A stretch of DNA of 48,103 nucleotides from Deltaproteobacteria bacterium (lineage in GTDB: Bacteria; Myxococcota; SpSt-1050; JACRCP01): assembly GCA_016218965.1 (NCBI GenBank), contig JACRCP010000396.1:1-48103 (forward strand), written 5' to 3'. The position numbers and the translations under genes were made by a program. Under the pieces are notes generated by a model that saw nothing but the letters and a program-made list of their open reading frames with translations, did not search any database and had not been told where the DNA came from. Below, in pieces: positions 17,959 through 41,904 of the stretch; the stretch's first letter is position 1, and every line of letters starts with the position of its first letter.

Positions 17959-18891
17959 TCAACGTCTCTTCGTCGCCAGGTACACTTTTCCGTTCGGCGC
18001 GTCTTTGAGGTTTTCGGTGAAAACGATCTGCGGCAGGCCGCTCGATGTCACTGTGAGCGACGGGGTGTCCTCATCCATGTCGGGTGTGGCGGTCACTATC
18101 TCCTCGGTTTCAAAAGCGCCGCCGTTGCCTCGGATGTAGAGAACGTCACTCATCGAGTCAAAGAATCGCTTGAACGCGATGTGAACTCCTGCCACGGGAT
18201 CACCGGCGACTCCGAGGTAGTACGTCCGGTCGTCGGTCGACGTCGAGATCGCCTGCACTCCTTTCCACGCGCCGGCCTCGAGCCGATTGTACGTGAGCGT
18301 CTTGTGGTCCCAGTCCGCGCCATCTGCGTACGCGAGGTGCACGACCCCGGCCCCGTCGAGCCCGATCGCCGGCGACCAGACATCCCGGTCGAGTGCGGTG
18401 AGCCCCTTCTCCGCGTCCCAACCAGCGGCGGTCCTCTTCCGGCGGTACAGGACGTTGTTGAAGTCGCTGCTCCCGGGCTTGCTGTAGACCGCGTGGACAT
18501 TCCCCGCGTTGTCGACGGCGAGGTCGTAGTCGGGGGAGAGCGAGAACGGTGCGGTCATGTCGGCGACCGTCTCGGCAACCGACGGCGCACCGTTCTTTGT
18601 CGAGAGATAACTGTCCGCAGACGCATCAACGGCACTGGTATCAGGCGACTCCCCCGCATCCTCGCCGGTGTCGGGAACAATCCCGGCGTCGGTGCCGACG
18701 TCCCCTGTCCAGGCATCTGCTCCGGCATCTTCGATTGCGCCGGTGTCTACGATTGGCCCTGAATCCCCGCCCGGGGCCGCACCGTCCCCGGCGGCGCCCT
18801 GCCCCGCCTCGTCGGAGCTGCAGGCGGAAACGGCCATGAGGAAGGTGAACACCGAAATGAACAAAATCGCGAGCAATCGACGGGTTTTCAT
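17959..18891 (-). CDS. Lipoprotein (lipobox LMAVSAC) with a DAG/DTG-rich linker, unknown function
   Basis: ATG at 18891 with GAGGGGAG RBS. Signal plus lipobox, an Asp/Gly-rich linker and a ~200-aa C-terminal domain. Confidence 0.65.
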   Translation of the reverse strand: MKTRRLLAILFISVFTFLMAVSACSSDEAGQGAAGDGAAPGGDSGPIVDTGAIEDAGADAWTGDVGTDAGIVPDTGEDAGESPDTSAVDASADSYLSTKNGAPSVAETVADMTAPFSLSPDYDLAVDNAGNVHAVYSKPGSSDFNNVLYRRKRTAAGWDAEKGLTALDRDVWSPAIGLDGAGVVHLAYADGADWDHKTLTYNRLEAGAWKGVQAISTSTDDRTYYLGVAGDPVAGVHIAFKRFFDSMSDVLYIRGNGGAFETEEIVTATPDMDEDTPSLTVTSSGLPQIVFTENLKDAPNGKVYLATKRR

Positions 18892-19043
18892 GAACTTCTC
18901 CCCTCAGGCGACCGGGCTCGTCACCCTATACAACGGACGTGGCACGAACGCAACGCGGCCTACACAGTTCGATTCCTCACTTTCTCCATGCTATACTTTG
19001 AATGAGAATCTGGCTAATGAACGCCGTTCGCGGGAGTTTGATC

Positions 19044-19271
19044 ATGGACAAGGTCTTGGCAATAAAAGAAATCGAGGCGCGGTACAAATCCGAGTGGGTC
19101 CTGGTGGAAGACCCGACGACGGACGAGACCCTGGAGATCCGGAGCGGAAAAGTCGTGTGTCACAGCAAGGACCGTGACGAGGTCTACCGAGTGGCCGCAT
19201 CGCGAAAACCCAGAAACTTCGCCGTTCTGTACACCGGCCGGATGCCGAAGGACGCGGCGATCATCCTGTGA
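19044..19271 (+). CDS. Small protein upstream of a retropepsin-like gene (possible DUF5678-like partner)
   Basis: Internal ATG at 19044 with GGGAG upstream. 75 aa. The stop overlaps the next gene's GTG start (GTGA). Confidence 0.45.
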   Translation: MDKVLAIKEIEARYKSEWVLVEDPTTDETLEIRSGKVVCHSKDRDEVYRVAASRKPRNFAVLYTGRMPKDAAIIL

Positions 19272-19651
19272 TCCACCGGTTCAAAGCCAAACAGGGCCTT
19301 GTCGTCGTTCGGGCGGAACTGACCGGCCCGACTGGGAAAGCCTCCTTGCGGCTGGCACTCGACACGGGGGCGACGAACACCCTGATCAATGTCGGCATGC
19401 TTGTCGCGATCGGCTGCGATCCGGCGACCTCCAGGGAACGCGTCGAGGTGACCACAGGGAGCGGGGTGGAGTTTGCACCTCGGGTTGGGCTGAAAAGACT
19501 GTTCGTCCTCGGCTCAGAGAGACGTTCATTCCGCGTACTGGCGCATACCCTGCCGCCGAGCGCAGGTGTGGACGGGCTTCTGGGATTGGATTTCTTCCGA
19601 GACCGGAAGCTGGGGATCGACTTCCGGAAAGGCCAAATCACCGTCGCCTGA
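19268..19651 (+). CDS. Bacterial retropepsin-like aspartic protease
   Basis: LALDTGATNTLI (D-T/S-G-A catalytic motif) within a ~125-aa protein. Confidence 0.7.
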   Translation: MIHRFKAKQGLVVVRAELTGPTGKASLRLALDTGATNTLINVGMLVAIGCDPATSRERVEVTTGSGVEFAPRVGLKRLFVLGSERRSFRVLAHTLPPSAGVDGLLGLDFFRDRKLGIDFRKGQITVA

Positions 19652-20176: not shown

Positions 20177-22060
20177 CTACTTGCAGCACTTCTCTATCAG
20201 GTCCGGCGGCTGGACGCCGTATTCGCAGGCGCAGCAGACGTCCTTGCACTCGGGCGGCGTGCAGCAATTGTCTATGATCGCCGGGTCCACGGTGCCGCAG
20301 TCCGGTTTCGGCGCACAGCACTTCTCGTTCACCTCGGGCGGCAGCACGCCGTAGTCGCACTCGCAGCAGACGTCTTCGCAGCTGACGCAGCACTCGGCGA
20401 ACTGCTCGGGCGTCACCGAACCGCAATCCGGCGGCTCCACTCCGTAGTCGAGCGTGATGCAGCATTGCGACGCCACGGTGCAGTCGACCGGTTCCTTGGG
20501 GCAGCATTCGTCTATCACAGCCGGATCGACCTTGTCGCAATCCGGGGGAGGGATGCCGTACTCGGGGGCGGCGCAGCACTGCTCGTAGACATCCGGGGGG
20601 ATCACGCCGTAGTCGCACTCGCAGCACACGTCGCCGCAGTTGATGCCGGCGTCCGGCGCGGGACCGGCGTCCTCGCCGATGACTCCGCCGTCCGGCGGCT
20701 CGACACCGTACTCCGGCTGGATGGCACAGCACTCTTCGTAAACGTCCGGCGGGATCACGCCGTATTCGCACTCGCAACAGACGTCCTTGCAGTTCGTTCC
20801 TCCGCCGTCCGGAGCGGGACCGGCGTCCTGTCCCACGGCGGCGTCCCCGGAAACGCCCCCGTCCTCGGCCGGGCCTCCCGAGTCCTCCACCACGGCACCC
20901 GCATCCCCGGAAGTGACCGCGACGTCGCACCCGCCGACTACCAGCGAAAACGCCGACGCAGCCGCGGCCATGTGCCGCGCCACGCGCCTAAGCGGCCGCT
21001 GGCGGACAAGCTCCGAGACCCTGTAGTAGCAGTAGGGGTCCTCGAAGACCGACGGTCCCATTGCCGCGGCCACGCATTTCGCGCCGCCCCGGCAGAGTTT
21101 TGCGTACCGGCAGGTCTTGCAGAATCCCGTGAGGTCGGCGGCCCGGAAGAGCCGGTTGTACGAAAATGCCGCCGGGTCGTTCCAGATGTCAGATAGCGCC
21201 CTCTCGCGGACGTTCCCTTCGACAAACGGGTCGCGATCGCGGTCCGAGAACGCCTGCATCGAGAGGCAGCCCTTGATGTTTCCGTTCGACTCGATCCCGA
21301 TCGCCTGGAGCCCTGCCTGGCACCCGCCCCAGCGCTGGGGTTTCCCGTCCCACGACATGGCCCGCAGGCGCGAGTCGTACGGCCCGTAGAAACCGATCGA
21401 ATCGCCAATGTGGACTCGAATCCCGCCCTTCGATTCGAGCCGGTAGAGGCGCGGGAGCAGATCAAGAAGGTCCTCGGGCTCGAGCACCCAGTCATCCCGA
21501 TCCTTCAAGTTCCCCATGGATTTGCCGAGCTGGACGCGCCACGACGCGGCGCCGAGCTTCTCGGCCATGCCGCAGGTCTCTTCGAGGTGCGCAAGGTTGA
21601 GCTTGTTGGCCGTGGTCATGATGGCCGTCGAGACGCCCGCGTCGGCAAGGAATGAGAGGGCGCGCACGGTCTTCGCGAACGTCCCCCTGCCGCGGATCTT
21701 CTCGTGCACCGCCTCGGGGCCATCGATGCTCACCGCGGCGTTGGCGAGCCCCGCGTCCTTCATTCGGCGTGCAAGCTCCGCCGTCATGGAGTTCCCATTG
21801 GTCACGATGTTGGCGATCATCCCGCGGTCGCGGATGGCTTTCGCCACGACCTCCCAGTCGGGCCGAAGTGTCGGCTCGCCGCCCGATAGCGTGATGAGCC
21901 TGCCCCCGAGCCTCGCGAGCGAGCCAACGACGCCAAGGCACTCGGCGGTGTCCATCTCGTCGGGCCGGGCCGTACCCGCCCGCGAGCCGCAGTGCCCGCA
22001 CCGCAGATCGCACGCCAGTGTGAACTCCCACACGCAGTTGACCGGCTTGAACTCAGGCAT
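20177..22060 (-). CDS. Radical SAM/SPASM-domain enzyme fused in frame to a signal-peptide-like hydrophobic segment and five tandem Cys-rich repeats
   Basis: ATG at 22060 with GGAGGG RBS (longer ORF to 22123). CDLRCGHC CxxxCxxC, SGGEPT, and a SPASM-like CKTCRYAKLCRGGAKC cluster. This is followed by RRVARHMAAAASAFSLVVGGCDVAV (signal/lipobox-like), then a Gly/Asp linker and repeats of C-x-DVCCEC-x-YGV-x-PPD-x3-CC. There is no stop between the domains in the sequence as given. Confidence 0.8.
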   Translation of the reverse strand: MPEFKPVNCVWEFTLACDLRCGHCGSRAGTARPDEMDTAECLGVVGSLARLGGRLITLSGGEPTLRPDWEVVAKAIRDRGMIANIVTNGNSMTAELARRMKDAGLANAAVSIDGPEAVHEKIRGRGTFAKTVRALSFLADAGVSTAIMTTANKLNLAHLEETCGMAEKLGAASWRVQLGKSMGNLKDRDDWVLEPEDLLDLLPRLYRLESKGGIRVHIGDSIGFYGPYDSRLRAMSWDGKPQRWGGCQAGLQAIGIESNGNIKGCLSMQAFSDRDRDPFVEGNVRERALSDIWNDPAAFSYNRLFRAADLTGFCKTCRYAKLCRGGAKCVAAAMGPSVFEDPYCYYRVSELVRQRPLRRVARHMAAAASAFSLVVGGCDVAVTSGDAGAVVEDSGGPAEDGGVSGDAAVGQDAGPAPDGGGTNCKDVCCECEYGVIPPDVYEECCAIQPEYGVEPPDGGVIGEDAGPAPDAGINCGDVCCECDYGVIPPDVYEQCCAAPEYGIPPPDCDKVDPAVIDECCPKEPVDCTVASQCCITLDYGVEPPDCGSVTPEQFAECCVSCEDVCCECDYGVLPPEVNEKCCAPKPDCGTVDPAIIDNCCTPPECKDVCCACEYGVQPPDLIEKCCK

Positions 22061-22232
22061 GACACCCTCCAGCGTTTGCTTTCGCGCCATTATACACTGA
22101 TGCCCCGAAAAACGGACAAACAACTTTCAAATCCGATGCCACGCGCAACATGCTGAAATGACTGCCCGTATTGGTCCCGGCACCGTTCAGAATTCCGACC
22201 GAAAGCGAATTTCCGGCGCCTATGGCCCGAGG

Positions 22233-23897
22233 TCACTTCCGGATCACGACCCAGAGCACTTGATCGTCCGTCCCCGGTTTGTCGATGGAGCGTTTTGCGC
22301 CGCCGGACACCTCGACGGGCGGCCCGGGTTTCCCGGTTTTTGGGTCGAAGAAACGCGCGTCGAAGGCGCCGGGCGCGTCGGAGAGATCGAGAGTGACGGA
22401 CTTCTGGGACTCGACATAGACGATGTACATGCGGCCGCGCTCGCAAAGCGCCGGGAGACCCGCCGCCACGGCTGCGTCTGGGCGCATCGCCTCGATGTTG
22501 AGCGAAGGATCGTCTAGGACCTTCGTGATGTGCCCCAGCCGGTCGAGCGCCGCATCGCGCTCCGCCGCTTTCGACGCGATGGCCGCCTTGGTGTCGAACC
22601 CGAACGACGCGTCGTTCTGCAACACGAAACCGGCACCGCCGAGCGCCGTGCCCCACGCCATCCGCATGAGGGCGTCCAGCCGGTCGGCCTCGCCCCTGAA
22701 CTCGGGGACCGGCTCGCTGAAGAAACAAGGCTTGGGCGGGGTCTTCCCGAACGCCGCAACATAGTGGTCAAAGAAGTCCCGCGCCGGCGGCATGGCGTCC
22801 CACCGCGGCGAGTGGTTGGTGATGACGTCGCACTCGGGATTGCCCTGGTAGTCGCCCGCGAGCACGTGGTCGTCGTTTACCGCGGTGATCGCGTCCGTCC
22901 GCTTCCTGAAGAACGACAGGAAGTGCGTCTGGTGCTTCAGGAGGTTGCCCTGGTCGTACCACTCGCCCTCGTTGAACATCTCGAACATCACGTTGTCGAA
23001 GCCCTTGAGCGTGTCAATCATGCGTTCGCAGAAGCGTTCCTGGAAGAACTGGTTCTTTTTTTGCCATCGCCACGAGGGGTCGAACGCGGCCGGGGCCTCG
23101 GCCCCGTAGTCGTCGAGCTCCACGTACCCGGCCTTGTCGGCAAGCGGCCCGCCGAGCGCGGAGTTGAACGGGTGACCGTCGAACCGCCACTTCACGCCGC
23201 CGTCGTGCACCGTGATCAGGACGACCATGTCCCTTGCGCGGGCCGCGCGGACGAACTCGCCAAGCTGTTCGAAATACACGGGGTTGAGGCTGTTCAAGTC
23301 GAACTTCCCCGGCCCACCGTTCCAGGGCCAGAACTCCGGCGCGTCGTAGCCGATCCGCTCGTCGTCCCTCTGGTCGGTGATCCCGATGTACGACCAGATC
23401 ATCACCACGTTGAGCCCCCTGCTCGAGAGCGCGTCGAGGTATTCCACGTAGTTGAAGTCGGCGCCCAGCTCCATCCAACCCTGCGTCAGCGAGTCGCCGA
23501 CAAGAATGACCGGTTTCCCGTCGAGCCGGAGGTAGTACCCCGAAGGCCCGACGGAAAGGCCCGGCAACACGCCACCGTCCGTCCCGCCCGCGTCGGCGCC
23601 GGCGTCCTGAGGGGCGGCAACATCGGACGGATCAGACCGATCGGACAGATCGGACACGCCGGGCAGATCGGACGCGTCTTCCGTCCCGTCGTCAATCGTC
23701 CCTTCGTCCTTCGTCCCGCTGTCCGCAAAGGCGCCAGCGTCCCGGCCCGACGGGCCGCCGTCCTTAGCCGATCCGGTCCCGGCGCCTTTCGGACCCCCGC
23801 CCCCGCCCTCCGTAGTGACCCCGCCGCCGCACGCCGCAAGGAACATCGTCGCGGCTGCAAACGAAACGGCAAGAGGGATCGTTCTCAACCGCATCAT
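22233..23897 (-). CDS. Lipoprotein, putative TIM-barrel glycoside hydrolase (clan GH-A/DUF4038-like)
   Basis: Internal start MMRLRTIPLAVSFAAATMFLAAC, then a Gly-rich/SD linker. The catalytic domain has FEMFNEGEW (NEx acid/base-like) and a conserved aromatic-rich TIM-barrel pattern. The family assignment is tentative. Confidence 0.7.
   Translation of the reverse strand: MMRLRTIPLAVSFAAATMFLAACGGGVTTEGGGGGPKGAGTGSAKDGGPSGRDAGAFADSGTKDEGTIDDGTEDASDLPGVSDLSDRSDPSDVAAPQDAGADAGGTDGGVLPGLSVGPSGYYLRLDGKPVILVGDSLTQGWMELGADFNYVEYLDALSSRGLNVVMIWSYIGITDQRDDERIGYDAPEFWPWNGGPGKFDLNSLNPVYFEQLGEFVRAARARDMVVLITVHDGGVKWRFDGHPFNSALGGPLADKAGYVELDDYGAEAPAAFDPSWRWQKKNQFFQERFCERMIDTLKGFDNVMFEMFNEGEWYDQGNLLKHQTHFLSFFRKRTDAITAVNDDHVLAGDYQGNPECDVITNHSPRWDAMPPARDFFDHYVAAFGKTPPKPCFFSEPVPEFRGEADRLDALMRMAWGTALGGAGFVLQNDASFGFDTKAAIASKAAERDAALDRLGHITKVLDDPSLNIEAMRPDAAVAAGLPALCERGRMYIVYVESQKSVTLDLSDAPGAFDARFFDPKTGKPGPPVEVSGGAKRSIDKPGTDDQVLWVVIRK
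23625..23680. repeat. TCGGAC-type SD-repeat tract
   Basis: tcggacagatcggacacgccgggcagatcggacgcgtc encodes DASDLPGVSDLSDRSDPSD on the minus strand. Confidence 0.5.
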
Positions 23898-23934
23898 CGA
23901 AGACCTCCTCATTGACCGAATCCCCCGCGAACTC

Positions 23935-25653
23935 TCAACGCACCGCCGAGCACGAACAGCCGGACGATTCGTCATTCCCCGAGCCGACGTCGGGTGCTTC
24001 GCCCGATCCCTGATCCTCCACCGCTCCCCCACCGCCGTCGGCCGGGGCCGGGACATCCGGGCCCCCGTTGTCGGCCGCGACCTGAGCATCGGCCTCGGAA
24101 CCGGAATCCGGCGCCGCCCCGTCAACCGGGGGTCCGGCATCGTCGAACCCGGCATCGGGCGCAGGACCGGCGTCCGGGACACCCGAATCCGCCGCGCCGG
24201 TATCGACCGGTCCCGCATCCAAACCGGCGCCGGAGTCGAATGTTCCGGCGTCCGCCGTTCCGGTGTCGGGCTGCCCCGCGTCGGGGATCTGCGTCGTCAC
24301 CGAAATGTCCCGCGAGAGCGTCTGCCCGAACCAGGCGACGCCGTCATGGACCATTCGGGCGCTGAAACGGGCCGTGCCTGGCGAGGCGGGCGCCACAAGG
24401 TCGAAGGTGAACTTGTTCGTCTGCCCCGGCGCCACCGGTGCCGCCATGTAGAGCCTCTGATCGGCCGCCGAGTTGTGGTACCCGCCGGCTGTGCCGTTGG
24501 CCCACATGACGGTGTTGTCCTGGACGGATCCCAGCCGTGTCCCCCCGATGTGGTCTTGCGGCTCCTGCCACGCGACCGTCCCCGTGTTCTTCATCGCGAC
24601 CTCGACGCGAACAGTCGAGCCCGGCGTCATGTACACGGGAATGGTGTGCGATTCCACGGCTGCGTCTTCGGTCTGCGACCCCATGTACTCGGCGAAGAAC
24701 GCCTGCCAGTCCCCCGCGTGGACGTAGAGCACCTCGGTCGCCGAGAGCGTCTGGCCGTTTGTGAACACCGGCGGGTGGTACGATCCGTCTATCGGCTCGC
24801 GGTCCCGGTTGACGAAGAAGAACTCGATCGTGCGCACCGGGTCTATCACCTCGACGTTGCGCCAGAAGTTGAACGTGGCGACCTGGGACGAACTCACCAC
24901 GCGCCCGATCCCGCCGTTGGGTCCCCAGATGTCGTACCACGAGTTCTGGAGCCCGCTCTGTCCGACCCCGGGGACGACCATGATCCCGCTGTTTGCCTGC
25001 CCCGGCCGCCGATCGGGAATAGGCCCGGCGGTCACTCCGGACGCCGTGTGATGTTCCCACGAGTTGCAGCAGCCGTACCACCATTCCCGCGTATCCCACG
25101 CGAAGTTGAGCAGCCCCGCGTCCACGCCCAGAACGTCCACGGGGCACGAGAGCATCATGACGCGGTGCTCGTCGAGACCTATTGCGTCCATCTCGGCCGT
25201 GTCGACCGTGATGAGGTGGCTCACGGCGATGCGTGACGAGTCCTTCTCGAACGTGTATGTGCGCGAGAAGCGCAGGCCCACCGACCTCCGCGCGGCCTCG
25301 GTGAGTCTGAGAGCCCCGGAAAAAGCGATCACGAGCCGGGAGGCCGTGTTTTCCTGGATTGTGACCTGCGCATTCTGCTCCCACGACTGGTCGAATGTGT
25401 TGTTCCCGACCCCGTCGCCGCCGTACAGGCTCCCGAGATAGTGGTAGCCGTCCCCCGCCAGAAACTGCACCCCGGCCCCCTTCCGCCACAGTTCGACCAT
25501 TGCCCCGCCCATGGCCGAATCCATGACCGCCTTGATCTTCGCGTCATCCCAGACGTGCCGCGTACCGGATTTCGAGTAACCGGAATGCGCGTAGCCGCCC
25601 TGAACACAGAAGACAGCCAGGGCCGTGATGCCTGCCGCAACCCCTCTGGACAT
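23935..25653 (-). CDS. Secreted protein of unknown function with a C-terminal DAG/DTG repeat region ending ...SSGCSCSAVR
   Basis: ATG at 25653 with AAGGGAG RBS. Signal peptide MSRGVAAGITALAVFCVQGGYA. The SD repeats in the 5' extension of the ORF are the shadow of the opposite-strand gene and are excluded. Confidence 0.65.
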   Translation of the reverse strand: MSRGVAAGITALAVFCVQGGYAHSGYSKSGTRHVWDDAKIKAVMDSAMGGAMVELWRKGAGVQFLAGDGYHYLGSLYGGDGVGNNTFDQSWEQNAQVTIQENTASRLVIAFSGALRLTEAARRSVGLRFSRTYTFEKDSSRIAVSHLITVDTAEMDAIGLDEHRVMMLSCPVDVLGVDAGLLNFAWDTREWWYGCCNSWEHHTASGVTAGPIPDRRPGQANSGIMVVPGVGQSGLQNSWYDIWGPNGGIGRVVSSSQVATFNFWRNVEVIDPVRTIEFFFVNRDREPIDGSYHPPVFTNGQTLSATEVLYVHAGDWQAFFAEYMGSQTEDAAVESHTIPVYMTPGSTVRVEVAMKNTGTVAWQEPQDHIGGTRLGSVQDNTVMWANGTAGGYHNSAADQRLYMAAPVAPGQTNKFTFDLVAPASPGTARFSARMVHDGVAWFGQTLSRDISVTTQIPDAGQPDTGTADAGTFDSGAGLDAGPVDTGAADSGVPDAGPAPDAGFDDAGPPVDGAAPDSGSEADAQVAADNGGPDVPAPADGGGGAVEDQGSGEAPDVGSGNDESSGCSCSAVR

Positions 25654-25747
25654 TGGCAACTCCCTTCCCGGTTCGGGCTCAAGGGTCCGGCGATCATTGT
25701 ACAGTACCCCGCGATGTGCTTCAATGTGTGACCAGAGGTCCACCTGC
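25654..25747. promoter_or_regulatory. Divergent intergenic region with a conserved ~45-bp block (CATTGTACA...CGCGATGTGCTTCAATGTG) duplicated at 30024-30111
   Basis: Sequence identity to the second copy is seen directly. Promoter function is an inference from its position between divergent start codons. Confidence 0.4.
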
Positions 25748-27067
25748 ATGAAAGCCACCGCATTTGTCGGCGTGACGTTCTGCCTTGCGGCCCTTGCCTG
25801 CGGCGAGGGCGTGACTGAAAACAGAGCGGACGCGCCGGCGGGTCGCGACGCGGGCGGCGGGCGGGACGAGGAGACGAGGGACGAAGGGACGACGGACGCG
25901 GGCGCGCAGGACGCGTCGGAACCGTCCGACCGGTCCGACACGTCCGACAGGTCTGACCTGTCCGATGTGGGTGGGTTTGACGCGTCCGATGCGTCCGATC
26001 TGTCCGATCGGTCCGATCCGTCCGACGTTGCAACACCGCAGGACGCCGGCACCGACGCGGGGCCGCCGCTTCACTATCCCGGGAAGACATGGGACGAAAA
26101 GGACCCCGGCGAGGCAGGGCTGGACAGCGCCAGGCTCGACTCGTACAAGGGCTCCGTTCTCGGCAGGGGCTGCGTGACGCGGGGCGGGTACATGGTGTAC
26201 ACGTGGGGCGATCAGGCCGCCAGGGGCGACGTCGCGTCCGCCTGCAAGCCTTTCTTCAGCCACTTCCTGTTCACGGCGGTCGAGGAGGGGCTGCTGGAGA
26301 ACATTGACGTACCGGCGAGGCAGTTCGAGCCGAGGCTCGACGCTATCAACAAGGACCTGGGCTACAAGGACCGCGGGATACTCTTCCGCCACTTTGCCAC
26401 GCAGACATCGTGCTACGGCGTCACCGAGTCCCCCGGAACCGCCTTCGACTACAACGACTTCCAGATGGCCCTGTTTTTCGACACGCTGTTTCTCAAGGTG
26501 TACGGAAAAACCTACGACAACCTGGACGCCGACGTGTTCAGGGCACGCCTGTGCGACGTCATCGAGTGCGAGGACAGTCCCACCTTCTTTGCCTTCGGGA
26601 AGAACGACCGCCCCGGGAGAACCGCGATCTCGGTCCGTGACTTCGCGCGCTTCGGCCTGCTGTACATGCGCGGGGGGCGATGGAACGACCGTGAACTGAT
26701 CCCGGCCGACGTCGTGCTCGCCGCAACGACCAGCCCTCTGCCGAACGCGATCCCGAGGACAAACGGCGTCGAAGCCGAGATGATCGCCGGACAAAGGTCC
26801 CTGGGCTCGAACACGATCCCCGACAACCAGACCGACCACTACGGGAGCTACAGCTACCTGTGGTGGACAAACGGCGTGGATCGGGACGGGAACCGGCAGT
26901 GGCCCGACGCGCCGCTCGACACCTACGGCGCTTTCGGACACGGCGGGAAGCGTGCGATGGTGGTGATTCCCAGCCTGGATATCGTGACGAGTTGGAACGA
27001 CTCCGGCATCGACACGCCGGAGAAGGCAAATGAGGCGCTGAAAAGGCTCGTCGCGTCGGTGCAATGA
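25748..27067 (+). CDS. Lipoprotein, beta-lactamase/transpeptidase-fold serine hydrolase (class C / family VIII esterase-like)
   Basis: MKATAFVGVTFCLAALAC lipobox, an SD-repeat linker, and a catalytic domain with the S-x-x-K motif (ASACKPF) and a later Tyr/HGG region. Confidence 0.75.
   Translation: MKATAFVGVTFCLAALACGEGVTENRADAPAGRDAGGGRDEETRDEGTTDAGAQDASEPSDRSDTSDRSDLSDVGGFDASDASDLSDRSDPSDVATPQDAGTDAGPPLHYPGKTWDEKDPGEAGLDSARLDSYKGSVLGRGCVTRGGYMVYTWGDQAARGDVASACKPFFSHFLFTAVEEGLLENIDVPARQFEPRLDAINKDLGYKDRGILFRHFATQTSCYGVTESPGTAFDYNDFQMALFFDTLFLKVYGKTYDNLDADVFRARLCDVIECEDSPTFFAFGKNDRPGRTAISVRDFARFGLLYMRGGRWNDRELIPADVVLAATTSPLPNAIPRTNGVEAEMIAGQRSLGSNTIPDNQTDHYGSYSYLWWTNGVDRDGNRQWPDAPLDTYGAFGHGGKRAMVVIPSLDIVTSWNDSGIDTPEKANEALKRLVASVQ
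25915..26030. repeat. SD-repeat tract (D-x-S-D)n
   Basis: ccgtccgaccggtccgacacgtccgacaggtctgacctgtccgatgtg...gcgtccgatgcgtccgatctgtccgatcggtccgatccgtccgac, about 90% identical to 30283-30396. Confidence 0.6.
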
Positions 27068-33115: not shown

Positions 33116-36100
33116 ATGACAAGTCCGAGCGTGACTCACCGCCCTGCTGTTGTTCGGACGGTGTCGTCCGGCGCGCTGAAAGCGCGGGAACTCTTGAGCC
33201 TGGGGCAACGCCCCAGGTACACGGGGCCGAAACCCGGCGAAGCCCTGAAGGGGCGAAACGTTCGAGTCAGCGGTTGCGATCCGACGAGTCTCGCCCTTTC
33301 AGGGCTCGCATCGCGATCCCAACCCCCACCCGGGGCGCTTCCCCGGGCTGAAGAATCTCGCGCCTTCAGCGCTCAGCCTCACCGTCCTCGCAGAAGAACC
33401 GCGGCGGGCGAACCCAGGACATTGAGCGGCCTTTTCCTGGCGGCTGCTGTGCTCTCCGCCCTTGCGGGCTGCGGCGGTCACGCCGGGGCGGCCGACGCCA
33501 AACAGGCGGGTGCCGACGCGGGCGGCGCGGGCGCCGCCGAGGAGGTTGCGCCGTTGAAGGTAATCAAGTGGACCGGGAAGTTCTCCGACGGCTGGAAGGA
33601 ATTCGACAAGCTCGCAAACGAGCAGAAGCACGAGAAGGCCTCGGAGCTTGTCGAAAAGATGCTCGAATCGGCCAAGTCGTCGAAAGACTCCGAGGAGTGG
33701 GTCCGCTGCCTCATCAAGTGGACGACCCTCCGTGTCGCGCTCCACGGGTACGAAACCTCCGTGCGCTTCCTGCGCGAACAGCCGTGGCCTGAAGACCTTC
33801 TGGGAAGCACGGTCCTGAACCTGTACTACGCGCGGACGCTCGTGACGTACGCCCACAGCTACTCGTGGGAGATCAACAAGCGCGAGCGCGTCGAGACGAA
33901 GGGCGTCGTGGACCTCAAGGCGTGGACCATGGACCAGATCTTTGCCGAGGCCCAGCGCGCGTACGAGGAGGTCTGGAAACACAGGGAACAGCTCGGCGAC
34001 CTGCCGGCAAAACACCTCTCGGAATACCTTGAACCCAACACGTATCCCGAGGGAATCCGGCCGACCCTCCGCGACGCCGTTTCGTACCTTCGCGTCGAGA
34101 TCCTCGCCGACACGCAGGGCTGGCGCCCCGAGCAGTCAAACGAGGTCTTCAGGCTCGATCTCAAAAACCTCCTGTCGGACGCTCCGGCCGCGAAAGACGG
34201 CAAGGTGTTCGACCTCGCCGACCCCGGTGTCCACCCGCTGGAAAAGATCGCCGCGATCCTTGCCGACCTCGAGCAATGGCACGCAAAAAAGGCCCGGAAG
34301 GAAGCGGCGTTCGAGGCACGACGGGAACGGCTGGAGAGACTCCACGCGAGTTTCACCGAAGACCAGGACCGCGCCCGAATCAAGCACGATCTCGAAAAAC
34401 GTCTGGGTGGCGTTTCGGGAAAACCCTGGTGGTCGATGGGGATGGCGACGCTTTCGACCTTCGTGCAGGCCGAAGACGCCTCCGACGCGCTGATACGCGC
34501 GCGCAAGATCGCCATCGAAGGCCGCGAGGCGTTTCCCGACTCGGTCGGCGGAAAGCGCTGCAATCACGTCGTCAAATCGATCGAGGCGCCGGACTACTCG
34601 CTTTCGGGCATGTCAAGCGACGGACCGAAGAAGCGATCGATCGAGGTGACGCACAAGAACCTCGGGGCACTGCACTTCCGGGCATACGCCGTGGACATCG
34701 TGAGACAGATAGAAACCGCCGACGACTACCGCATTTACCCCGGCTGGAAGGCGCTCCAGAAGATGGTCGAGTCGGGACGCCCGGCACACACATGGTCCGT
34801 CGAGCTTCCCGCGACACCCGACTACAGGATGCACGAAACGTTCGTGACGCCGCCAATGACCAAGTCCGGCTTGTACGTCGTCATGGCCTCGGCGCGGAAG
34901 GACTACGCGCAGGACGACAACAAGATCCTCGGACTCGACGTGGTCGTGACGGACCTCGTGATGGTGACCAGGCAGGAGGGCGGCGAGGTCGAGGTCACGG
35001 TACTTGACGGCCCGGCGGGGAAGCCGGTCCCGGGTGCCGAGGTGACTCTCTACAAATACGACTGGCGGAACAAGCACAAGTCGGTCGATTCCGAGACGAC
35101 CGATGCAAAAGGCGTGGTTCGGTTCTCGCGGAAATCGCAGGACGGTTCGTACTTCCTATTTGCAAAAAAAGGCGTTGAGGTCGCGTACGACCCGAACTAC
35201 CTGTATTTCTACCGCCAGCAGCCCGCGCCCGACCAGCACGCGACCCTCATCTTCACCGACCGGAGCATCTACCGGCCGATGCAAAAGCTCTTTTGGAAGG
35301 CCCTCGTCTATCACGGAAGGTACGACAGGGCGGACTACAAGATCGCTACTAACACCTCGGTGACGATCTCGCTCGTGGACCCGAACCACCAGACCGTCGA
35401 GACAAAGACCGTGACGACCAACGCCTACGGCACGGCGTCGGGCGAGTTCACGATCCCGACCGGACGCATCCTGGGCCAGTGGCACCTGCAAAGCTCGCTC
35501 AACGGGACCGCCTACGTCCGCGTCGAAGAGTACAAGCGCCCGACGTTCGAGTCGAAGTTTCTGGACCCCGCAAGCGCCCTCCGCCTCAACAAGCCCGCGA
35601 CTCTAAAGGGCGAGGCCCGGTACTACTTTGGTCTGCCGGTGACCAACGGCGCGGTCAAGTGGCGCGTCACGCGCGAGCCGGTCTATCCGTGGTGGTGGGG
35701 TTGGTACTGGTGGGCCGAATCCCGCCCGGCGGCCGCGAAGATCCAGACCGTGGCGACCGGCACGGCCGCGCTGAAGGAGGACGGCACGTTCACGTTCACC
35801 TTCACCCCCGAAGCCGACGAGCGCGGCGCCGAGTCGAAGCACCTGACCTTCCGGTACGCCGTCACCGCCGACGTCACCGACGAGGGCGGCGAGACGCGGT
35901 CCGCGTCAAAATCCTTCAGGCTGGGCTTCGTCTCCGTCGAGGCCGCAGTGAGGATGGAAACCGGGTTCCTGATGGAAGGGCAGACGGGCGATCTCACGGT
36001 GCTTCGGACGAATCTCGACGGCGTTCCCAAGGCCGGCAAAGGCGCGTGGAAGCTTCTGGCGACGAGCGGCCCCAAAGAGGCCCTCACGCCGGCCGAACAA

Positions 36101-39100
36101 CCGTTCCCGACGCTTCCGGGAAAAGAAAAGAAAAAGGAGTTCGCGACACCGGGCGACTCGATCCGGCCCCGTTGGAATTTCTCGTACACGCCCGAGGCCG
36201 TGATGCGCGCGTGGGAGGACGGCGGCGTCAAGGGGAGCGGCGAGGTTTCGCACAACGACAAGGGCGAAGGCAAGGTTGCCATCCCCGCGCTCTCGGCGGG
36301 CGTCTATCGCCTCAAGTACGAGACACAGGACGAGTTCGGCGCCAAGTTCGAGATGTCAAAGGAGTTCGTCGTCGGCGGCCGCCGGGCGAACATCGCCCTC
36401 CCCTCGCTCCTGCTCGTCGAGGAATCGTCGGTCAAGGTCGGCGGCACGGCGCGGATTCTCGCGCTTTCGGGCCTGCGCGACCAGTACATGGTGCTCGACG
36501 TCTACCGTGAAGGGAAGCGCGTGGATCGGCGGCAGCTCGAATCGGGCCGGGACTCGACGCTCATAGAGATACCCGTGACCGAGAAAGACCGCGGCGGTTT
36601 CGGCGTGACGCTCTCGGTCCTCCGCGACCACCAGTTCATGCACTCGTCGCAGACGGTGTTCGTCCCGTGGGACGACAAGGAGTTGAAGGTCGAGTTCTCG
36701 ACGTTTAGGGACAAGCTCCGCCCCGGGCAGAAGGAGAAGTGGACGGTGAAGCTTTCCGGCCCAGAGGGAAAGGACACTGCAGTCGCGGCGGCCGAGGTTC
36801 TTTCGTACCTGTACGACCGATCGCTTGACGCCTTCGTCCCGCACAGTCCGCCGAGCCCGCTGTCCATCTGGCCCCACCGCGCCTCGGTCGTCTGGGCGCG
36901 TGCGAACCTCGGGACGGCACACCAGGAGTGGATCGAGAGCCGCGGGTTCAAGCCGCTCCCCGGTTGGCCCGACCTCCATCCGGACCGCCTGAAATTCTAC
37001 GAAGGCTACGGGATCGGCGGGCCCGGGAGGCGAAGGTACTACAAGGGCGGCGGCGCACCGGAAGGCGCGGCCATGCGCAAGTCGATGCCCATGAAGGCAA
37101 TGGCCCGGATGGATCGCGACGAGGCCGAAATGAAGGCCGAAGAGGCCAGGCCGCCCGCTGCGCCGGCCGCGCAGGCCCCGATGGAGGCCGCCGACAAGGC
37201 CGTGGCTACGTCGGAGACGAAACAAAAGGCCGGCGACGGGAGGGACCGCCGCGAACCCGAGGCGCCGGTGCAGATGCGCGCCGATTTTTCGGAGACCGCG
37301 TACTTTTTGCCGCACCTCATCACGGGCGCCGACGGCACGGCGTCAATCGAGTTCTCGGTACCCGATTCGGTCACCTCGTGGAACGTCTGGGTCCACGCGG
37401 TCACAAAGGACCTAAAATCCGGCTCGACGACAAAAGAGGCCAAAACCGTCAAAGACCTCATGGTCCGCCCGTACATCCCGCGCTTCCTGCGCGAGGGGGA
37501 CAAGGCCGAGATCAAGGTCGTCGTCAACAACGCCTCGGACAAGGAGATCAAGGGACATCTCGCATTCGACATCATCGACCCGTCTACAGAGAAGAGCGTG
37601 CTCGAGTCCTTCGGCCTGCGGCCAGAGGACACGAAGAAGCTCCCGTTCACCGTTCCGGCAGGCGGCGGAACAAACCTCGGTTTCTCGCTCGCGACACCTG
37701 CGAAGGTCGGCCTGATAGCATTCAAGGTCACCGCCGTGTCGGGCGATGTGTCCGACGGCGAGCTTCGGCCTATTCCGGTGCTCCCCGGGCGGATGCACCT
37801 TGCGCAGTCCCGGTTCGTGACGCTTCGGGGCAAGGGCCAGAGGGTCATGAAGTTCGCCGATCTTGAAAAGGCCGACGACTCGACGCTGATTAACGAACAG
37901 ATGGTCGTGACGCTCGACGCGCAACTCTTCTACTCGGTGCTCTCGGCACTCCCCTACCTCGTGAACTACCCGTACGAGTGCACCGAGCAGACGCTCAACC
38001 GCTTCGTCTCGACCGGGATACTCTCTTCGATGTACGCGAAGTACCCCGCCATCGAAAAGATGGCAAAGGAGTTCTCGACCCGGAAGACCGAGTTCGAGCA
38101 GTGGGACCAGCCTGATCCCAACAGGAAGATGGCGCTCGAGGAGACGCCGTGGCTCCGGATGGCCAAGGGCGGGACGCACGACTACGACGATCTCGTAAAC
38201 GTCCTCGACCCGCGGATCACCCGCGCCCAGCGCGACGCGTCGCTCGCGAAACTGCGCAAGGCGCAGACCAGCTCCGGCGGCTTCCCGTGGTTCCCCGGCG
38301 GCCCGCCGTCGCCGTGGATGACCGTCTACATGCTCTACGGCTTCTCGAAGGCCCTCGAGTTCGGCGTGGACGTCCCCAAGGACATGGTCCAGCGCGCGTG
38401 GTCGTACGTGCACCGGTACTACATTGACGAGATCGTACGCGACATGATCCGCCACGACTGCTGCTGGGAGACCGTCACGTTCATCAACTACGTGCTCTCG
38501 AACTATCCGGATTCGAGCTGGACCGGAGGCGTCTTCTCGGACGACGAGCGCCAGAAGATGCTGCTGTTCTCGTTTGGCAAGTGGAAGAAGCACTCGCCGT
38601 ATCTCAAGGGGTATCTCGCGCTTACGCTCAAGAGGATGAAGCGCGAGAAGGACGCGCGCCTCGTGTGGGAGTCGGTCCTCGATTCGGCAAAGGAGAAGGA
38701 GGACCAGGGGACGTTCTGGGCGCCAGAGGACCGCGGCTGGCTCTGGTACAACGACACGATCGAAACACATGCGTTTGCGATCAGGACGACCATGGAGCTG
38801 ATGCCCGAGGAGCCGAAGCTCGACGGGATGGTGCTCTGGATCTTCCTTAACAAGAAACTCAACCACTGGAAATCCACGCGCGCCACGGCCGAGGTGGTCT
38901 ATTCGCTTGCGCACTACCTCAAGAAGACCGACCAGCTCGGCGTGCGCGAGGACGCGGCGGTGACGTTAAACGGCGAGACGACGCGGTTCGTTTTTGAGCC
39001 CGACAAGTACACCGGGAAGAAGAACCAGATCGTCGTACCGGGCGAGAAAGTTGACCCGAAGCGCACATCGACGATCACGGTCGAAAAGGACAGCAAAGGC

Positions 39101-39607
39101 TATCTCTTCGCCTCGGCGACGTGGCACTTCTCGACCGAGAAGCTGCCCGAGGAAGACCGCGGCGACTACCTTGCCGTCTCGCGACAGTTCTTCAGGAGGG
39201 TCAACACCGGCCGCGAGTTCGTCTTGCAGCCGCTCAAGGACGGGACAGCGCTTTCTCCCGGCGACGAGGTCGAGGTCCACATATCGCTCCGCTCAAAGCA
39301 CCAGATGGAGTACGTTCACCTGCGCGACCCGAGGGGCGCCGGTTTCGAGCCCGAAGGCGCCGTGAGCAGGCACAAGTGGGAGCTGGGCATCTACTGGTAC
39401 GAGGAGTACCGCGACTCCGGGACCAACTTCTTCTTCGAAAGACTCCCGCAGGGCGAGTACACGTTCAAGTACCGGATAAGGGCCGCGACGGCAGGCACCT
39501 TCAAGGTCGCGCCGGCGACCGTGCAACCGATGTACGCGCCGGAGTTCAACGCGTACAGCGCGGGAGCGGTGGTGAAGATCAGTTCGTCGGAGGAAAAGGC
39601 GAAGTAG
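33116..39607 (+). CDS. Bacterial alpha-2-macroglobulin family protein (YfhM/ECAM-like) with an intact thioester motif
   Basis: ~2160-aa ORF. The thioester signature YPYECTEQ (CxEQ) lies at ~37960-37985 within LVNYPYECTEQTLNRFV. MG-domain-like repeats precede it. A lipoprotein-type signal (LSGLFLAAAVLSALAGC) lies ~102 codons inside the ORF at the TTG at 33422. The ATG at 33116 has a strong GAGGAGG RBS but encodes a 100-aa Arg/Pro-rich extension, so the true start is uncertain. Confidence 0.85.
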   Translation: MTSPSVTHRPAVVRTVSSGALKARELLSLGQRPRYTGPKPGEALKGRNVRVSGCDPTSLALSGLASRSQPPPGALPRAEESRAFSAQPHRPRRRTAAGEPRTLSGLFLAAAVLSALAGCGGHAGAADAKQAGADAGGAGAAEEVAPLKVIKWTGKFSDGWKEFDKLANEQKHEKASELVEKMLESAKSSKDSEEWVRCLIKWTTLRVALHGYETSVRFLREQPWPEDLLGSTVLNLYYARTLVTYAHSYSWEINKRERVETKGVVDLKAWTMDQIFAEAQRAYEEVWKHREQLGDLPAKHLSEYLEPNTYPEGIRPTLRDAVSYLRVEILADTQGWRPEQSNEVFRLDLKNLLSDAPAAKDGKVFDLADPGVHPLEKIAAILADLEQWHAKKARKEAAFEARRERLERLHASFTEDQDRARIKHDLEKRLGGVSGKPWWSMGMATLSTFVQAEDASDALIRARKIAIEGREAFPDSVGGKRCNHVVKSIEAPDYSLSGMSSDGPKKRSIEVTHKNLGALHFRAYAVDIVRQIETADDYRIYPGWKALQKMVESGRPAHTWSVELPATPDYRMHETFVTPPMTKSGLYVVMASARKDYAQDDNKILGLDVVVTDLVMVTRQEGGEVEVTVLDGPAGKPVPGAEVTLYKYDWRNKHKSVDSETTDAKGVVRFSRKSQDGSYFLFAKKGVEVAYDPNYLYFYRQQPAPDQHATLIFTDRSIYRPMQKLFWKALVYHGRYDRADYKIATNTSVTISLVDPNHQTVETKTVTTNAYGTASGEFTIPTGRILGQWHLQSSLNGTAYVRVEEYKRPTFESKFLDPASALRLNKPATLKGEARYYFGLPVTNGAVKWRVTREPVYPWWWGWYWWAESRPAAAKIQTVATGTAALKEDGTFTFTFTPEADERGAESKHLTFRYAVTADVTDEGGETRSASKSFRLGFVSVEAAVRMETGFLMEGQTGDLTVLRTNLDGVPKAGKGAWKLLATSGPKEALTPAEQPFPTLPGKEKKKEFATPGDSIRPRWNFSYTPEAVMRAWEDGGVKGSGEVSHNDKGEGKVAIPALSAGVYRLKYETQDEFGAKFEMSKEFVVGGRRANIALPSLLLVEESSVKVGGTARILALSGLRDQYMVLDVYREGKRVDRRQLESGRDSTLIEIPVTEKDRGGFGVTLSVLRDHQFMHSSQTVFVPWDDKELKVEFSTFRDKLRPGQKEKWTVKLSGPEGKDTAVAAAEVLSYLYDRSLDAFVPHSPPSPLSIWPHRASVVWARANLGTAHQEWIESRGFKPLPGWPDLHPDRLKFYEGYGIGGPGRRRYYKGGGAPEGAAMRKSMPMKAMARMDRDEAEMKAEEARPPAAPAAQAPMEAADKAVATSETKQKAGDGRDRREPEAPVQMRADFSETAYFLPHLITGADGTASIEFSVPDSVTSWNVWVHAVTKDLKSGSTTKEAKTVKDLMVRPYIPRFLREGDKAEIKVVVNNASDKEIKGHLAFDIIDPSTEKSVLESFGLRPEDTKKLPFTVPAGGGTNLGFSLATPAKVGLIAFKVTAVSGDVSDGELRPIPVLPGRMHLAQSRFVTLRGKGQRVMKFADLEKADDSTLINEQMVVTLDAQLFYSVLSALPYLVNYPYECTEQTLNRFVSTGILSSMYAKYPAIEKMAKEFSTRKTEFEQWDQPDPNRKMALEETPWLRMAKGGTHDYDDLVNVLDPRITRAQRDASLAKLRKAQTSSGGFPWFPGGPPSPWMTVYMLYGFSKALEFGVDVPKDMVQRAWSYVHRYYIDEIVRDMIRHDCCWETVTFINYVLSNYPDSSWTGGVFSDDERQKMLLFSFGKWKKHSPYLKGYLALTLKRMKREKDARLVWESVLDSAKEKEDQGTFWAPEDRGWLWYNDTIETHAFAIRTTMELMPEEPKLDGMVLWIFLNKKLNHWKSTRATAEVVYSLAHYLKKTDQLGVREDAAVTLNGETTRFVFEPDKYTGKKNQIVVPGEKVDPKRTSTITVEKDSKGYLFASATWHFSTEKLPEEDRGDYLAVSRQFFRRVNTGREFVLQPLKDGTALSPGDEVEVHISLRSKHQMEYVHLRDPRGAGFEPEGAVSRHKWELGIYWYEEYRDSGTNFFFERLPQGEYTFKYRIRAATAGTFKVAPATVQPMYAPEFNAYSAGAVVKISSSEEKAK

Positions 39608-39685: not shown

Positions 39686-39799
39686 GTGTGCGACGCGCGA
39701 CGTCGTCGCGTGGCGCGAAACATCCCCGAGCCTGTCGAAGGGCTAAGGTTCCCGCCAATGCGGGCTGCCGGGTAGATGGATCGAGGATTGGAGGGATCC

Positions 39800-41837: not shown

Positions 41838-41904
41838 GATGCTGGATGCTAGATGCTAGATGGCGCAGATCGAAATCCAGCATCCAACGTCCGGCATCCA
41901 GCAT
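41838..41904 (+). promoter_or_regulatory. Tandem GATGCT(G/A)GATGCTAGATG repeats paired with a downstream inverted copy (ATCCAGCATCC...GGCATCCAGCATCC), forming an extended stem-loop spanning the annotated rSAM start
   Basis: Direct and inverted repeats seen in sequence. A regulatory role is inferred. Confidence 0.35.

Follow-up and report, generated by a model that had tools for sequence, protein, structure and literature searches.

A radical SAM/SPASM enzyme joined through an internal lipoprotein signal to an X-Y-G repeat tail: a candidate self-contained splicease-type maturase of uncultured Myxococcota

Spliceases are known mainly from the heterologous expression of small, leader-bearing peptides. 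They cut at X-Y-G (XYG) motifs and excise a tyramine unit (PMC11414181, PMC11626197, PMC9811515), and the ketoamides of the resulting spliceotides inhibit serine and cysteine proteases (PMC11414181, PMC11626197, PMC9811515, PMC11002830, PMC10849128). PlpX and PcpX work together with a Y protein, RhaX, RasX and RcsX are binary systems, and the precursors are of the Nif11 or NHLP type (PMC11414181, PMC11626197); the binary types do without a Y protein (PMC11414181). What spliceotides look like in nature, and what they do there, are said to "remain elusive" (PMC9811515). The survey of Scott et al. (2022) covered 189 genera and mined YG-rich open reading frames (ORFs) beside radical SAM (rSAM)-SPASM genes (PMC10849128). 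The fusion of a helix to the C-terminus of engineered spliceases raises their activity and frees them from the need for a leader (PMC11414181), and the only natural precedents that a 2024 study from a splicease laboratory cited for its engineered constructs were PqqD fusions. Here, we analysed a 48,103-nucleotide (nt) stretch of DNA (the window) from a Deltaproteobacteria metagenome-assembled genome (MAG; contig JACRCP010000396.1, placed in the Myxococcota by GTDB). It contains a gene in which an rSAM/SPASM enzyme continues in one reading frame into a lipoprotein-type signal and a Cys-rich tail with seven XYG sites. On balance, we favour the view that this gene encodes a self-contained splicease-type maturase/lipoprotein-substrate fusion, of a kind typical of uncultured Myxococcota.

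The gene lies on the minus strand, starts at ATG 22060 and ends with the stop codon at 20177-20179 (Table 1). Its product of 627 amino acids (aa) is identical to MBI5529518.1, which carries the NCBI label 'radical SAM protein'. In a Pfam search, the protein matched Radical_SAM (PF04055) with 88.5 bits (cutoff 29.5) and, at aa 247-317, SPASM (PF13186) with 34.4 bits (cutoff 21.5), and CKTCRYAKLCRGGAKC was found alongside CDLRCGHC and GGEP. Residues C17, C21 and C24, the GGEP motif and the SPASM cysteines 247, 265, 314, 317, 323, 329 and 344 are invariant in an alignment of 91 family sequences. The reading frame stays open past C344, the last SPASM cysteine, through RRVARHMAAAASAFSLVVGGCDVAV. 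AlphaFold2 (AF2) predicts the enzyme domain with predicted local distance difference test (pLDDT) scores above 90, a single long helix over aa 345-376 and, with low confidence, the acidic linker. A first-pass annotation of the window had described the enzyme, the signal-like segment and the Cys-rich repeats as sharing one frame, and our results confirm a genuine, conserved fusion. Proteins that are 94% identical to the window protein and have the same open junction are encoded in two independent assemblies, on JGI and Logan contigs (34 and 24 kb); the sole indel relative to the window protein affects 13 aa in the spacer that follows XYG site 2 (aa ~455). A database search with the fused protein retrieved 638 homologues, and more than 100 of the best 120 span 80-100% of the query, with lengths of 440-820 aa. 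More than 150 homologues, with identities as low as about 40%, share the fused architecture, mostly in Myxococcota MAGs. A scan of GTDB, with one genome per species, found relatives in 333 stretches; of these, the best 80 loci were looked at, and about 70 of them have the fused layout. Nearly all of the 80 come from MAGs labelled Myxococcota, Myxococcales, Polyangia, Haliangium, Nannocystaceae, Kofleriaceae, Anaeromyxobacteraceae or Bradymonadia, and two (L043 and L057) are frameshifted copies of the gene. We regard the fused pattern as far beyond chance.

The idea that the tail is the substrate of the enzyme, which had also been put forward in the first-pass annotation, is backed by a split version, in which a stand-alone lipoprotein is encoded next to an orthologous, tail-less rSAM enzyme in two independent assemblies. 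A phmmer search with the tail alone against 1.8 billion representatives gave 15 matches, and a word-index search with one of these, P0121, gave four; in both searches, composition filters probably remove most relatives. In P0121, a stand-alone lipoprotein of 193 aa, four CCxCDYG units come after a normal signal at the N-terminus (MKKTVMTGFVLSSLLVGC), and a 398-aa rSAM/SPASM gene is found 25 nt downstream of it (locus L008). The enzyme encoded there has no tail and shares 45% identity with the window enzyme (E 2e-103); it nests in the fused clade, with 60-65% identity to fused members of the Polyangiaceae type, and retains a degenerate remnant of the linker (RRARVWPQSGA...). The same order of lipoprotein and tail-less rSAM gene is present on an independent metagenome contig (L090), and the spacing across the two loci is 3-25 nt. 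Because the gene order is reversed, with the putative substrate preceding the enzyme, the split form is not a broken fusion. As the split enzyme is without a membrane segment and its partner lipoprotein is predicted to be exported alone, contact between them would be possible only in the cytoplasm, prior to export, as one would expect of an enzyme and its substrate. No conserved neighbour (precursor, peptidase, transporter or Y/accessory protein) is common to five long contigs with fused homologues, and the only further YG-rich ORFs beside fused genes belong to the frameshifted copies L043 and L057 and to a fragment at a contig edge (P0133).

The tail itself is made up of four full 6-Cys units, C-x-D-V-C-C-x-C-[DE]-Y-G-V-x-P-P-[DE]-x-x-E-x-C-C, and three shorter units, [DE]-Y-G-[VI]-x-P-P-D. 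The first-pass annotation had counted five repeats and about 40 Cys in total, whereas the tail holds 37 Cys including that of the lipobox, and the whole protein 50. In the DNA, the 6-Cys units are four dispersed and diverged copies of an 87-nt unit (68-77% identity), and Tandem Repeats Finder detected no tandem array at this level. The 250 aa of the tail contain 53 Asp and Glu residues, 31 Pro and no Arg. When 165 non-identical tails of the family were compared, at least one YG was found in 164, the exception being the frameshifted L043; the median is four sites and the maximum 12. YG dipeptides occur 798 times in these tails against 79 expected from composition, a ten-fold excess, and 77% of the tail Tyr residues are followed by Gly, compared with 12% of those in the enzyme portions. 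The sites conform to the consensus [DE]-Y-G-[VI]-x-P-[PDE], with Asp or Glu as X at 93% of the sites. At least 11 members have no Cys after the lipobox, and all of them except the truncated L043 keep YG repeats, for example EYGVMVP, PPYGLPED, AYGVRPP and YYGMPED. The universal element of the tail is thus (D/E)-Y-G-(V/I)-x-P and not cysteine. In 144 of the 165 tails, the lipobox Cys is followed by an even number of Cys residues, and several of the exceptions have double lipoboxes or are truncated; the even count fits the predicted pairing of these residues in disulfides outside the cell. Pfam and NCBIfam scans of the tail gave no family match, DUF1843 included, and the tail repeat is an undescribed domain for which neither collection holds a model. 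One family member, from an uncultured Myxococcales MAG (L055 3788-6955, CAYRCM010000256.1), is a protein of 1056 aa and 80 Cys in whose tail Cys-rich XYG modules (CxPCCPxC[DE]YG[FV]xP) alternate with thrombospondin-type-3-like DxDxDGxxD calcium-binding repeats, and which resembles an extracellular matrix or adhesion protein.

The top NCBIfam models for the fused enzyme are TIGR03913, 'GDL motif peptide-associated radical SAM/SPASM maturase' (296.8 bits), and TIGR04103, 'nif11-class peptide radical SAM maturase 3' (285.5 bits). AhbD, MftC, PqqE and sactipeptide models reach at most 153 bits, sactipeptide maturase models at most 120 bits, and TIGR04133 gives 141.8 bits against a cutoff of 425. 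As the two best scores lie far below the respective equivalog cutoffs of 591.75 and 725 bits, we consider the fused enzyme to form a distinct clade. The closest solved folds are those of SkfB (the top PDB match), PqqE, anSME and SuiB. In a tblastn search against annotated plasmids, TIGR03913 and TIGR04103 members with 36-40% identity over the whole domain were found, and an enzyme on plasmid p057_G of Nostoc sp. C057, assigned to TIGR04103 by PGAP, is 39% identical over 373 aa (E 8e-89) and provides the full-length homology to the splicease type. The gene 5' of this Nostoc enzyme codes for a precursor with a Nif11, PlpA3-homologous leader and a core, ...GG-RGSIALYGLPPELF, that ends in ...LYGLPPELF, and a small Y-like ORF of 71 aa follows the enzyme in the PlpY position. 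We take TIGR04103 to be the PlpX subclass (IPR026482 in PMC11002830), on the basis of the Nostoc locus and of the InterPro mapping. The PlpA3 core AVAAMYGVVFPWD (MYGVVFP) and the minimal splice tag PIRPGYGLPI show the same context of YG, a hydrophobic residue and Pro as the tail repeats. The 'GDL' enzymes of Burkholderia and Azospirillum come after DUF1843/DUF1842 peptides (L121 560-2125 and L122 2055-2755, on Burkholderia pseudomallei and Azospirillum lipoferum plasmids), and these peptides carry an X-Y-G about ten residues before the GDL motif (TPYGVAIHQAIADGDL, AAMYGVAIQ...SGDL and MLYGGAM...SGDL). The presence of XYG in GDL peptides next to TIGR03913 rSAM enzymes suggests that those systems are also of the splicease type. 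With regard to the hallmarks of the described classes, the window gene encodes seven XYG sites together with the enzyme, as expected of a splicease substrate. A separate Y (PqqD-like) protein and a Nif11/NHLP leader, as in type I spliceases, are absent from the window and from the five loci. The rSAM core begins at about aa 8-12, which leaves no room for a RiPP (peptide made by the ribosome and modified after translation) recognition element (RRE), and the putative substrate is a fused domain of 250 aa with Cys-free versions in the family, unlike those of sactipeptide and ranthipeptide maturases. The anSME substrate motif (C/S)-x-P-x-R does not occur in the Arg-free tail. From these comparisons, the enzyme is best placed as a probable distinct clade within the XYG-associated, splicease-like rSAM enzymes.

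The hydrophobic segment between enzyme and tail had been likened in the first-pass annotation to a signal with a lipobox, and it is indeed of the lipoprotein type. C378, the lipobox Cys, is invariant in all 91 aligned members, the residue at -1 is G, A or S in 90 of them, and positions -2 and -3 fit as well. Across the family, the uncharged stretch before the lipobox Cys is 13-26 aa long (mean 17), and the 15 residues preceding it have a mean net charge of +2.3. The window protein displays all parts of a precursor for Sec and signal peptidase II, namely a positive n-region, an h-region and a lipobox of the form [LVI][ASTVI][GAS]C (RQRPLRRVARH / MAAAASAFSLVV / GGC). What departs from an ordinary lipoprotein is the location of the signal at aa 345-378, after a complete enzyme; an N-terminal placement is seen only in the split homologue P0121. 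Export by the Tat pathway was considered and rejected, as the twin arginines in the linker are not conserved among the aligned members. Stand-alone relatives have also conserved the start of the post-SPASM helix, PYCYYRVSELVRQ; in Nostoc, for instance, it reads NPYCHHRALELAKH.

Based on these data, we propose that the enzyme domain folds and stays in the cytoplasm, where it would modify the X-Y-G repeats of the tail, either in cis or on a sister molecule. The favoured chemistry would be the splicease reaction, that is, the radical excision of a tyramine unit at X-Y-G to give ketoamides, although this is the least certain step of the proposal. The hydrophobic segment would then serve Sec as an internal signal and drive the tail across the inner membrane, Lgt would lipidate Cys378, and signal peptidase II (LspA) would probably separate the mature lipoprotein from the enzyme. 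The remaining, even-numbered Cys residues could afterwards pair as disulfides, and the result would be a lipoprotein of the cell envelope that bears multiple ketoamide groups and acts, for example, as a protease inhibitor. One might speculate that the post-SPASM helix acts like the activating helix of engineered spliceases. A more elaborate version, which we put forward tentatively and consider rather doubtful as a whole, is a device made of one chain: the splicease would act on its own tail and create ketoamide (beta-amino acid) residues at the XYG sites, the helix would activate or tether and then become the internal lipoprotein signal, and cleavage by LspA would release a disulfide-rich, multi-ketoamide lipoprotein to the envelope, perhaps as a protease shield, and leave the spent enzyme on the membrane. 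Several points weigh against the favoured fusion of splicease-type maturase and substrate. Tyramine loss, export, lipidation and cleavage are all read from sequence, and the kinship with spliceases is drawn through the Nostoc enzyme and not through PlpX (WP_019503880.1) itself. The enzyme scores below the cutoffs of TIGR04103 and of TIGR03913, and its tail is without the DUF1843 of the latter. The predominance of Asp and Glu at X has to be set beside the one DYG site examined in RcsA, which was left unspliced by RcsX (PMC11626197). No bacterial precedent for an internal lipoprotein signal was found in the searchable literature, the split arrangement occurs in one lineage only, and the duplication of 6-Cys modules could partly explain the even number of Cys residues. 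Lastly, the modification of up to seven sites must compete with Sec export, which poses a problem of timing.

Other explanations of the same architecture have to be weighed. The first-pass annotation had suggested that two ordinary genes might have been joined by a lost stop codon or a frameshift. We found no direct support for such an artefact; the frameshifted copies L043 and L057 do show that errors or pseudogenes occur in the family. We consider the artefact practically negligible, because the independent assemblies and the homologues retain the same open frame, and because the sole true split has a reversed gene order that a single stop codon cannot produce. One ORF could also give two products, if an internal start before the h-region yielded an ordinary lipoprotein precursor and the full-length fusion were minor or absent. 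In-frame GTG and ATG codons do precede the h-region in the window gene, and about 76% of the family members have some start codon there. However, neither start codons nor Shine-Dalgarno (SD)-like motifs are enriched before the hydrophobic segment when in-frame positions inside the enzyme domain serve as the control (0.76/0.45/0.06 versus 0.75/0.47/0.14): the start-codon frequency equals the background of 0.75, and the SD-like motifs are rarer than background (0.06 versus 0.14). Therefore, nothing indicates a separately initiated second product, and with no Met conserved at that position and a strong GGAGGG in front of the true start at 22060, we regard this possibility as very unlikely.

More serious competition comes from readings that accept the fusion and differ in what it does. 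Enzyme and tail could be maturase and substrate, with the rSAM domain installing Cys-derived thioether cross-links of the sactipeptide, ranthipeptide or QhpD/PapB-like kind in the Cys-rich repeats, for instance between the Cys at -5 and the Asp/Glu at -1, given the C-x3-D/E spacing in CCxC[DE]YG. Thioether synthesis is well established for rSAM-SPASM enzymes, SkfB (which forms thioethers) and anSME (which modifies Cys) are among the closest solved folds, and the window tail offers 36 Cys after the lipobox Cys. Moreover, Asp or Glu is found at -1 in 97% of the YG sites in Cys-rich tails, compared with about 39% in Cys-poor ones. Nevertheless, Cys cross-linking, to which the first-pass annotation had pointed, is not supported by the family as a whole: the members with Cys-free tails keep an intact enzyme and, apart from L043, the same (D/E)YG(V/I)xP repeats, a second rSAM clade described below also pairs with a Cys-free YG lipoprotein (L117), and the even Cys count suits Cys-Cys pairing better than links from Cys to other residues. 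The enzyme lacks an N-terminal RRE for binding a leader peptide, and its best family matches are enzymes with X-Y-G substrates, the splicease motif, and not the sactipeptide maturases. We therefore judge thioether chemistry to be unlikely. The protein could also be a permanent bitopic membrane protein, in which the helix is an uncleaved anchor, the periplasmic Cys/YG domain is a sensor, a metal-binding or an adhesive module, and the rSAM domain acts on a target other than the tail. The single continuous helix predicted by AF2 and the Ca-binding-type DxDxDG repeats interleaved in the tail of L055, as in extracellular matrix proteins, would suit such an arrangement. It is improbable in our view: a plain anchor has no need of an invariant lipobox Cys, no other candidate substrate gene is conserved in the neighbourhood, the XYG enrichment of the tail matches the substrates of related enzymes, and in the split version an enzyme without a membrane segment could meet its partner only before export.

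Table 1. Features of the fused rSAM/SPASM-lipoprotein gene, in window coordinates
Feature	Position	Strand	Remarks
Whole coding sequence, 627 aa plus stop	20177..22060	-	rSAM/SPASM enzyme, internal lipoprotein signal and XYG/Cys-rich tail
Shine-Dalgarno-like GGAGGG, 4 nt 5' of ATG 22060	22065..22070	-	
Radical SAM core, aa 12-163	21572..22027	-	PF04055
Cluster motif CxxxCxxC (CDLRCGHC)	21989-22012	-	in radical SAM core
GGEP motif	21872-21883	-	in radical SAM core
SPASM auxiliary Fe-S domain, aa 247-344	21029..21322	-	PF13186 and seven invariant Cys
Post-SPASM helix: basic linker YYRVSELVRQRPLRRVARH and Ala-rich, uncharged h-region MAAAASAFSLVVGG	20930..21028	-	layout of a signal-peptide n-/h-region
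Lipobox VGGC including Cys378	20927..20938	-	predicted lipidation and signal peptidase II cleavage site
Acidic Gly/Ala/Asp-rich linker, 45 aa, aa 379-423	20792..20926	-	AF2 pLDDT <50
Repeat domain, 204 aa (aa 424-627), 36 Cys	20180..20791	-	
XYG site 1 (E-Y433-G)	20759..20767	-	
XYG site 2 (E-Y451-G)	20705..20713	-	
XYG site 3 (D-Y484-G)	20606..20614	-	
XYG site 4 (E-Y501-G)	20555..20563	-	
XYG site 5 (D-Y539-G)	20441..20449	-	
XYG site 6 (D-Y570-G)	20348..20356	-	
XYG site 7 (E-Y614-G)	20216..20224	-	

The window contains a second system of an rSAM enzyme and lipoproteins. A 379-aa rSAM/SPASM protein (41853-42992, plus strand) is 29% identical to the fused enzyme, and its best model is TIGR04133, 'rSAM_w_lipo', with 259.5 bits against the cutoff of 425. 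A gene for a Cys-rich lipoprotein with three [DE][YF]G-x-x-C-x-A-Y-G-P-x-P-C repeats (41072-41818, plus strand) ends 35 nt before it, and a paralogous lipoprotein (39776-40252, plus strand) is encoded about 1.2 kb upstream. At three other loci (L117-L119), homologues of the 379-aa enzyme are directly preceded by lipoproteins with (A/V)YYGPxPVD or YGPPSC repeats, that of L117 being Cys-free apart from the lipobox Cys; a YG-repeat lipoprotein thus precedes the rSAM gene of this clade in all four loci examined, the window included. Pfam and NCBIfam scans of the stand-alone lipoproteins gave no match to a curated family. The first-pass annotation had linked the fused gene to the proteins at 39800 and 41072. 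This link is real but indirect, as the similarity between the tail and the window lipoproteins (E 6e-4) is confined to the signal and linker region, and outside the lipobox region these proteins are not homologous to the tail. Two diverged rSAM clades of the Myxococcota are each tied to predicted YG-repeat lipoproteins, which in one clade have genes of their own and in the other are fused to the enzyme. This accounts for the likeness of the loci, which we read as functional analogy and not as homology of the tails. The enzyme domain of the fused family has a conserved G-Y-Y-G-P loop of its own (GDSIGFYGPYD at about 21370-21390; family consensus IGDSIGYYGPHD), which is the source of most YG dipeptides outside the tails and is reminiscent of the (A/V)YYGP repeats in the partner lipoproteins of the second clade. 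The first YG-repeat lipoprotein gene is preceded, at a distance of 170 nt, by a gene for a bacterial alpha-2-macroglobulin of 2163 aa (33116-39607, plus strand). This protease trap comprises MG2, A2M, bait-region and bMG10 domains, and its location beside putative ketoamide lipoproteins could reflect a shared anti-protease theme or be a coincidence. Small overlapping ORF pairs of toxin-antitoxin-like appearance are present at 40298-40630/40617-40907 and 43105-43488/43485-43796 (minus strand), the first of them between the two paralogous lipoprotein genes.

With regard to the surroundings of the fused gene, the products of the flanking genes at 17959-18891, 22233-24218 and 23935-26052 (all minus strand) are secreted or lipoprotein-like, with long Asp/Ala/Gly/Pro-rich linkers after the signal, and include a weak GH5-like match and an Ig-like N_BRCA1_IG domain. 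Since these secreted proteins share its composition, the acidic linker of the fused protein reflects a genome-wide style and is not specific to the gene. Just past the 3' end of the fused gene and on the opposite strand lies a two-gene cassette (19002-19271 and 19268-19651, plus strand) coding for a weakly DUF5678-like protein and a retropepsin-like aspartyl protease (PF13975/PF13650, E ~1e-10), which is not conserved beside fused homologues elsewhere. In several genomes, tail-less rSAM/SPASM paralogues of 353 aa co-occur with the fused gene. These enzymes (L081-L083, L085, L087 and L089) were considered as further split partners and rejected; they are tail-less paralogues with about 39-43% identity to the fused enzyme, and no YG-rich ORF was found within 6 kb of them.

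If the favoured assignment as a splicease-type maturase fused to its lipoprotein substrate is correct, it would place the splicease reaction on large, exported and lipid-anchored proteins of a whole bacterial phylum. The design would have enzyme and substrate built in at a ratio of 1:1, with no need for a leader, a Y protein, a dedicated protease or a transporter. It would suggest a concrete role for ribosomal beta-amino/ketoamide residues in the cell envelope. In the more elaborate, one-chain version, it would be the first natural splicease-substrate fusion and the first internal signal peptidase II signal linking a cytoplasmic enzyme to its exported product, and it would give such protein splicing a native physiological context. 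Natural single-chain spliceases would also be of use to protein engineering. The locus raises a question of cell biology, namely whether Sec, Lgt and LspA can use a lipoprotein signal that lies behind a folded Fe-S enzyme of 345 aa, and a fusion conserved across an internal lipobox is unusual whatever the chemistry. As the first-pass annotation had assumed, no account of such a fusion was found in the searchable literature, in which no paper was seen that joins radical SAM/SPASM with a lipobox, a lipoprotein or fused Myxococcota precursors, or that links a splicease with a lipoprotein. TIGR03913, TIGR04133 and TIGR04103 are not mentioned there, and TIGR04134 appears once, in an unrelated paper on type IX secretion. 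The survey by Scott et al. (2022) lies outside that search and may hold an earlier mention of the fused proteins as well as of the GDL-motif systems.

Among known systems, the rSAM enzymes designated TIGR04133 are presumably paired with a lipoprotein family (TIGRFAMs description), and to our knowledge no function has been published for them. The window resembles such pairs in the genetic tie between an rSAM-SPASM enzyme and a lipoprotein, whereas their partners are separate genes and neither window enzyme reaches the cutoff of 425. AtsB/anSME with Sec-exported sulfatases, and QhpD with QhpC, are similar in that a cytoplasmic rSAM-SPASM enzyme modifies a protein that is exported afterwards, but there the enzyme and the substrate are separate and Cys or Ser is the target, whereas Cys is dispensable in the fused family. 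The maturases SkfB, CteB and PapB likewise combine an rSAM core with a SPASM or twitch domain and act on Cys-rich substrates; the fused enzyme has neither an RRE nor a short leader peptide, and some substrates in its family would be free of Cys. In the engineered RhaX-leader and PlpX-PlpY fusions (PMC11414181), a helix was placed on the C-terminus of the splicease, where the post-SPASM helix is found here; those constructs are artificial and carry only an activating helix, with neither a substrate nor an export signal. The closest likeness is to the spliceotide systems themselves, with which the locus shares an rSAM-SPASM enzyme of full-length homology to a TIGR04103 enzyme encoded beside a PlpA3-like precursor, a conserved helix after the SPASM domain, and XYG followed by a hydrophobic residue and Pro (YGLPPE, YGVVFP and YGLPI compared with YGVIPPD here). 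It differs from them in that the putative substrate is fused to the enzyme instead of being a separate, leader-bearing peptide, that the junction is a lipoprotein export signal, that there is no Y protein and no Nif11/NHLP leader, and that the tails have up to 12 sites with mostly Asp or Glu as X, mostly in 6-Cys modules. Taken together, the enzyme class and the motif are known, and what appears to be new is the single-chain design of enzyme, signal and putative substrate, the predicted destination as a lipoprotein, and the 6-Cys XYG module.

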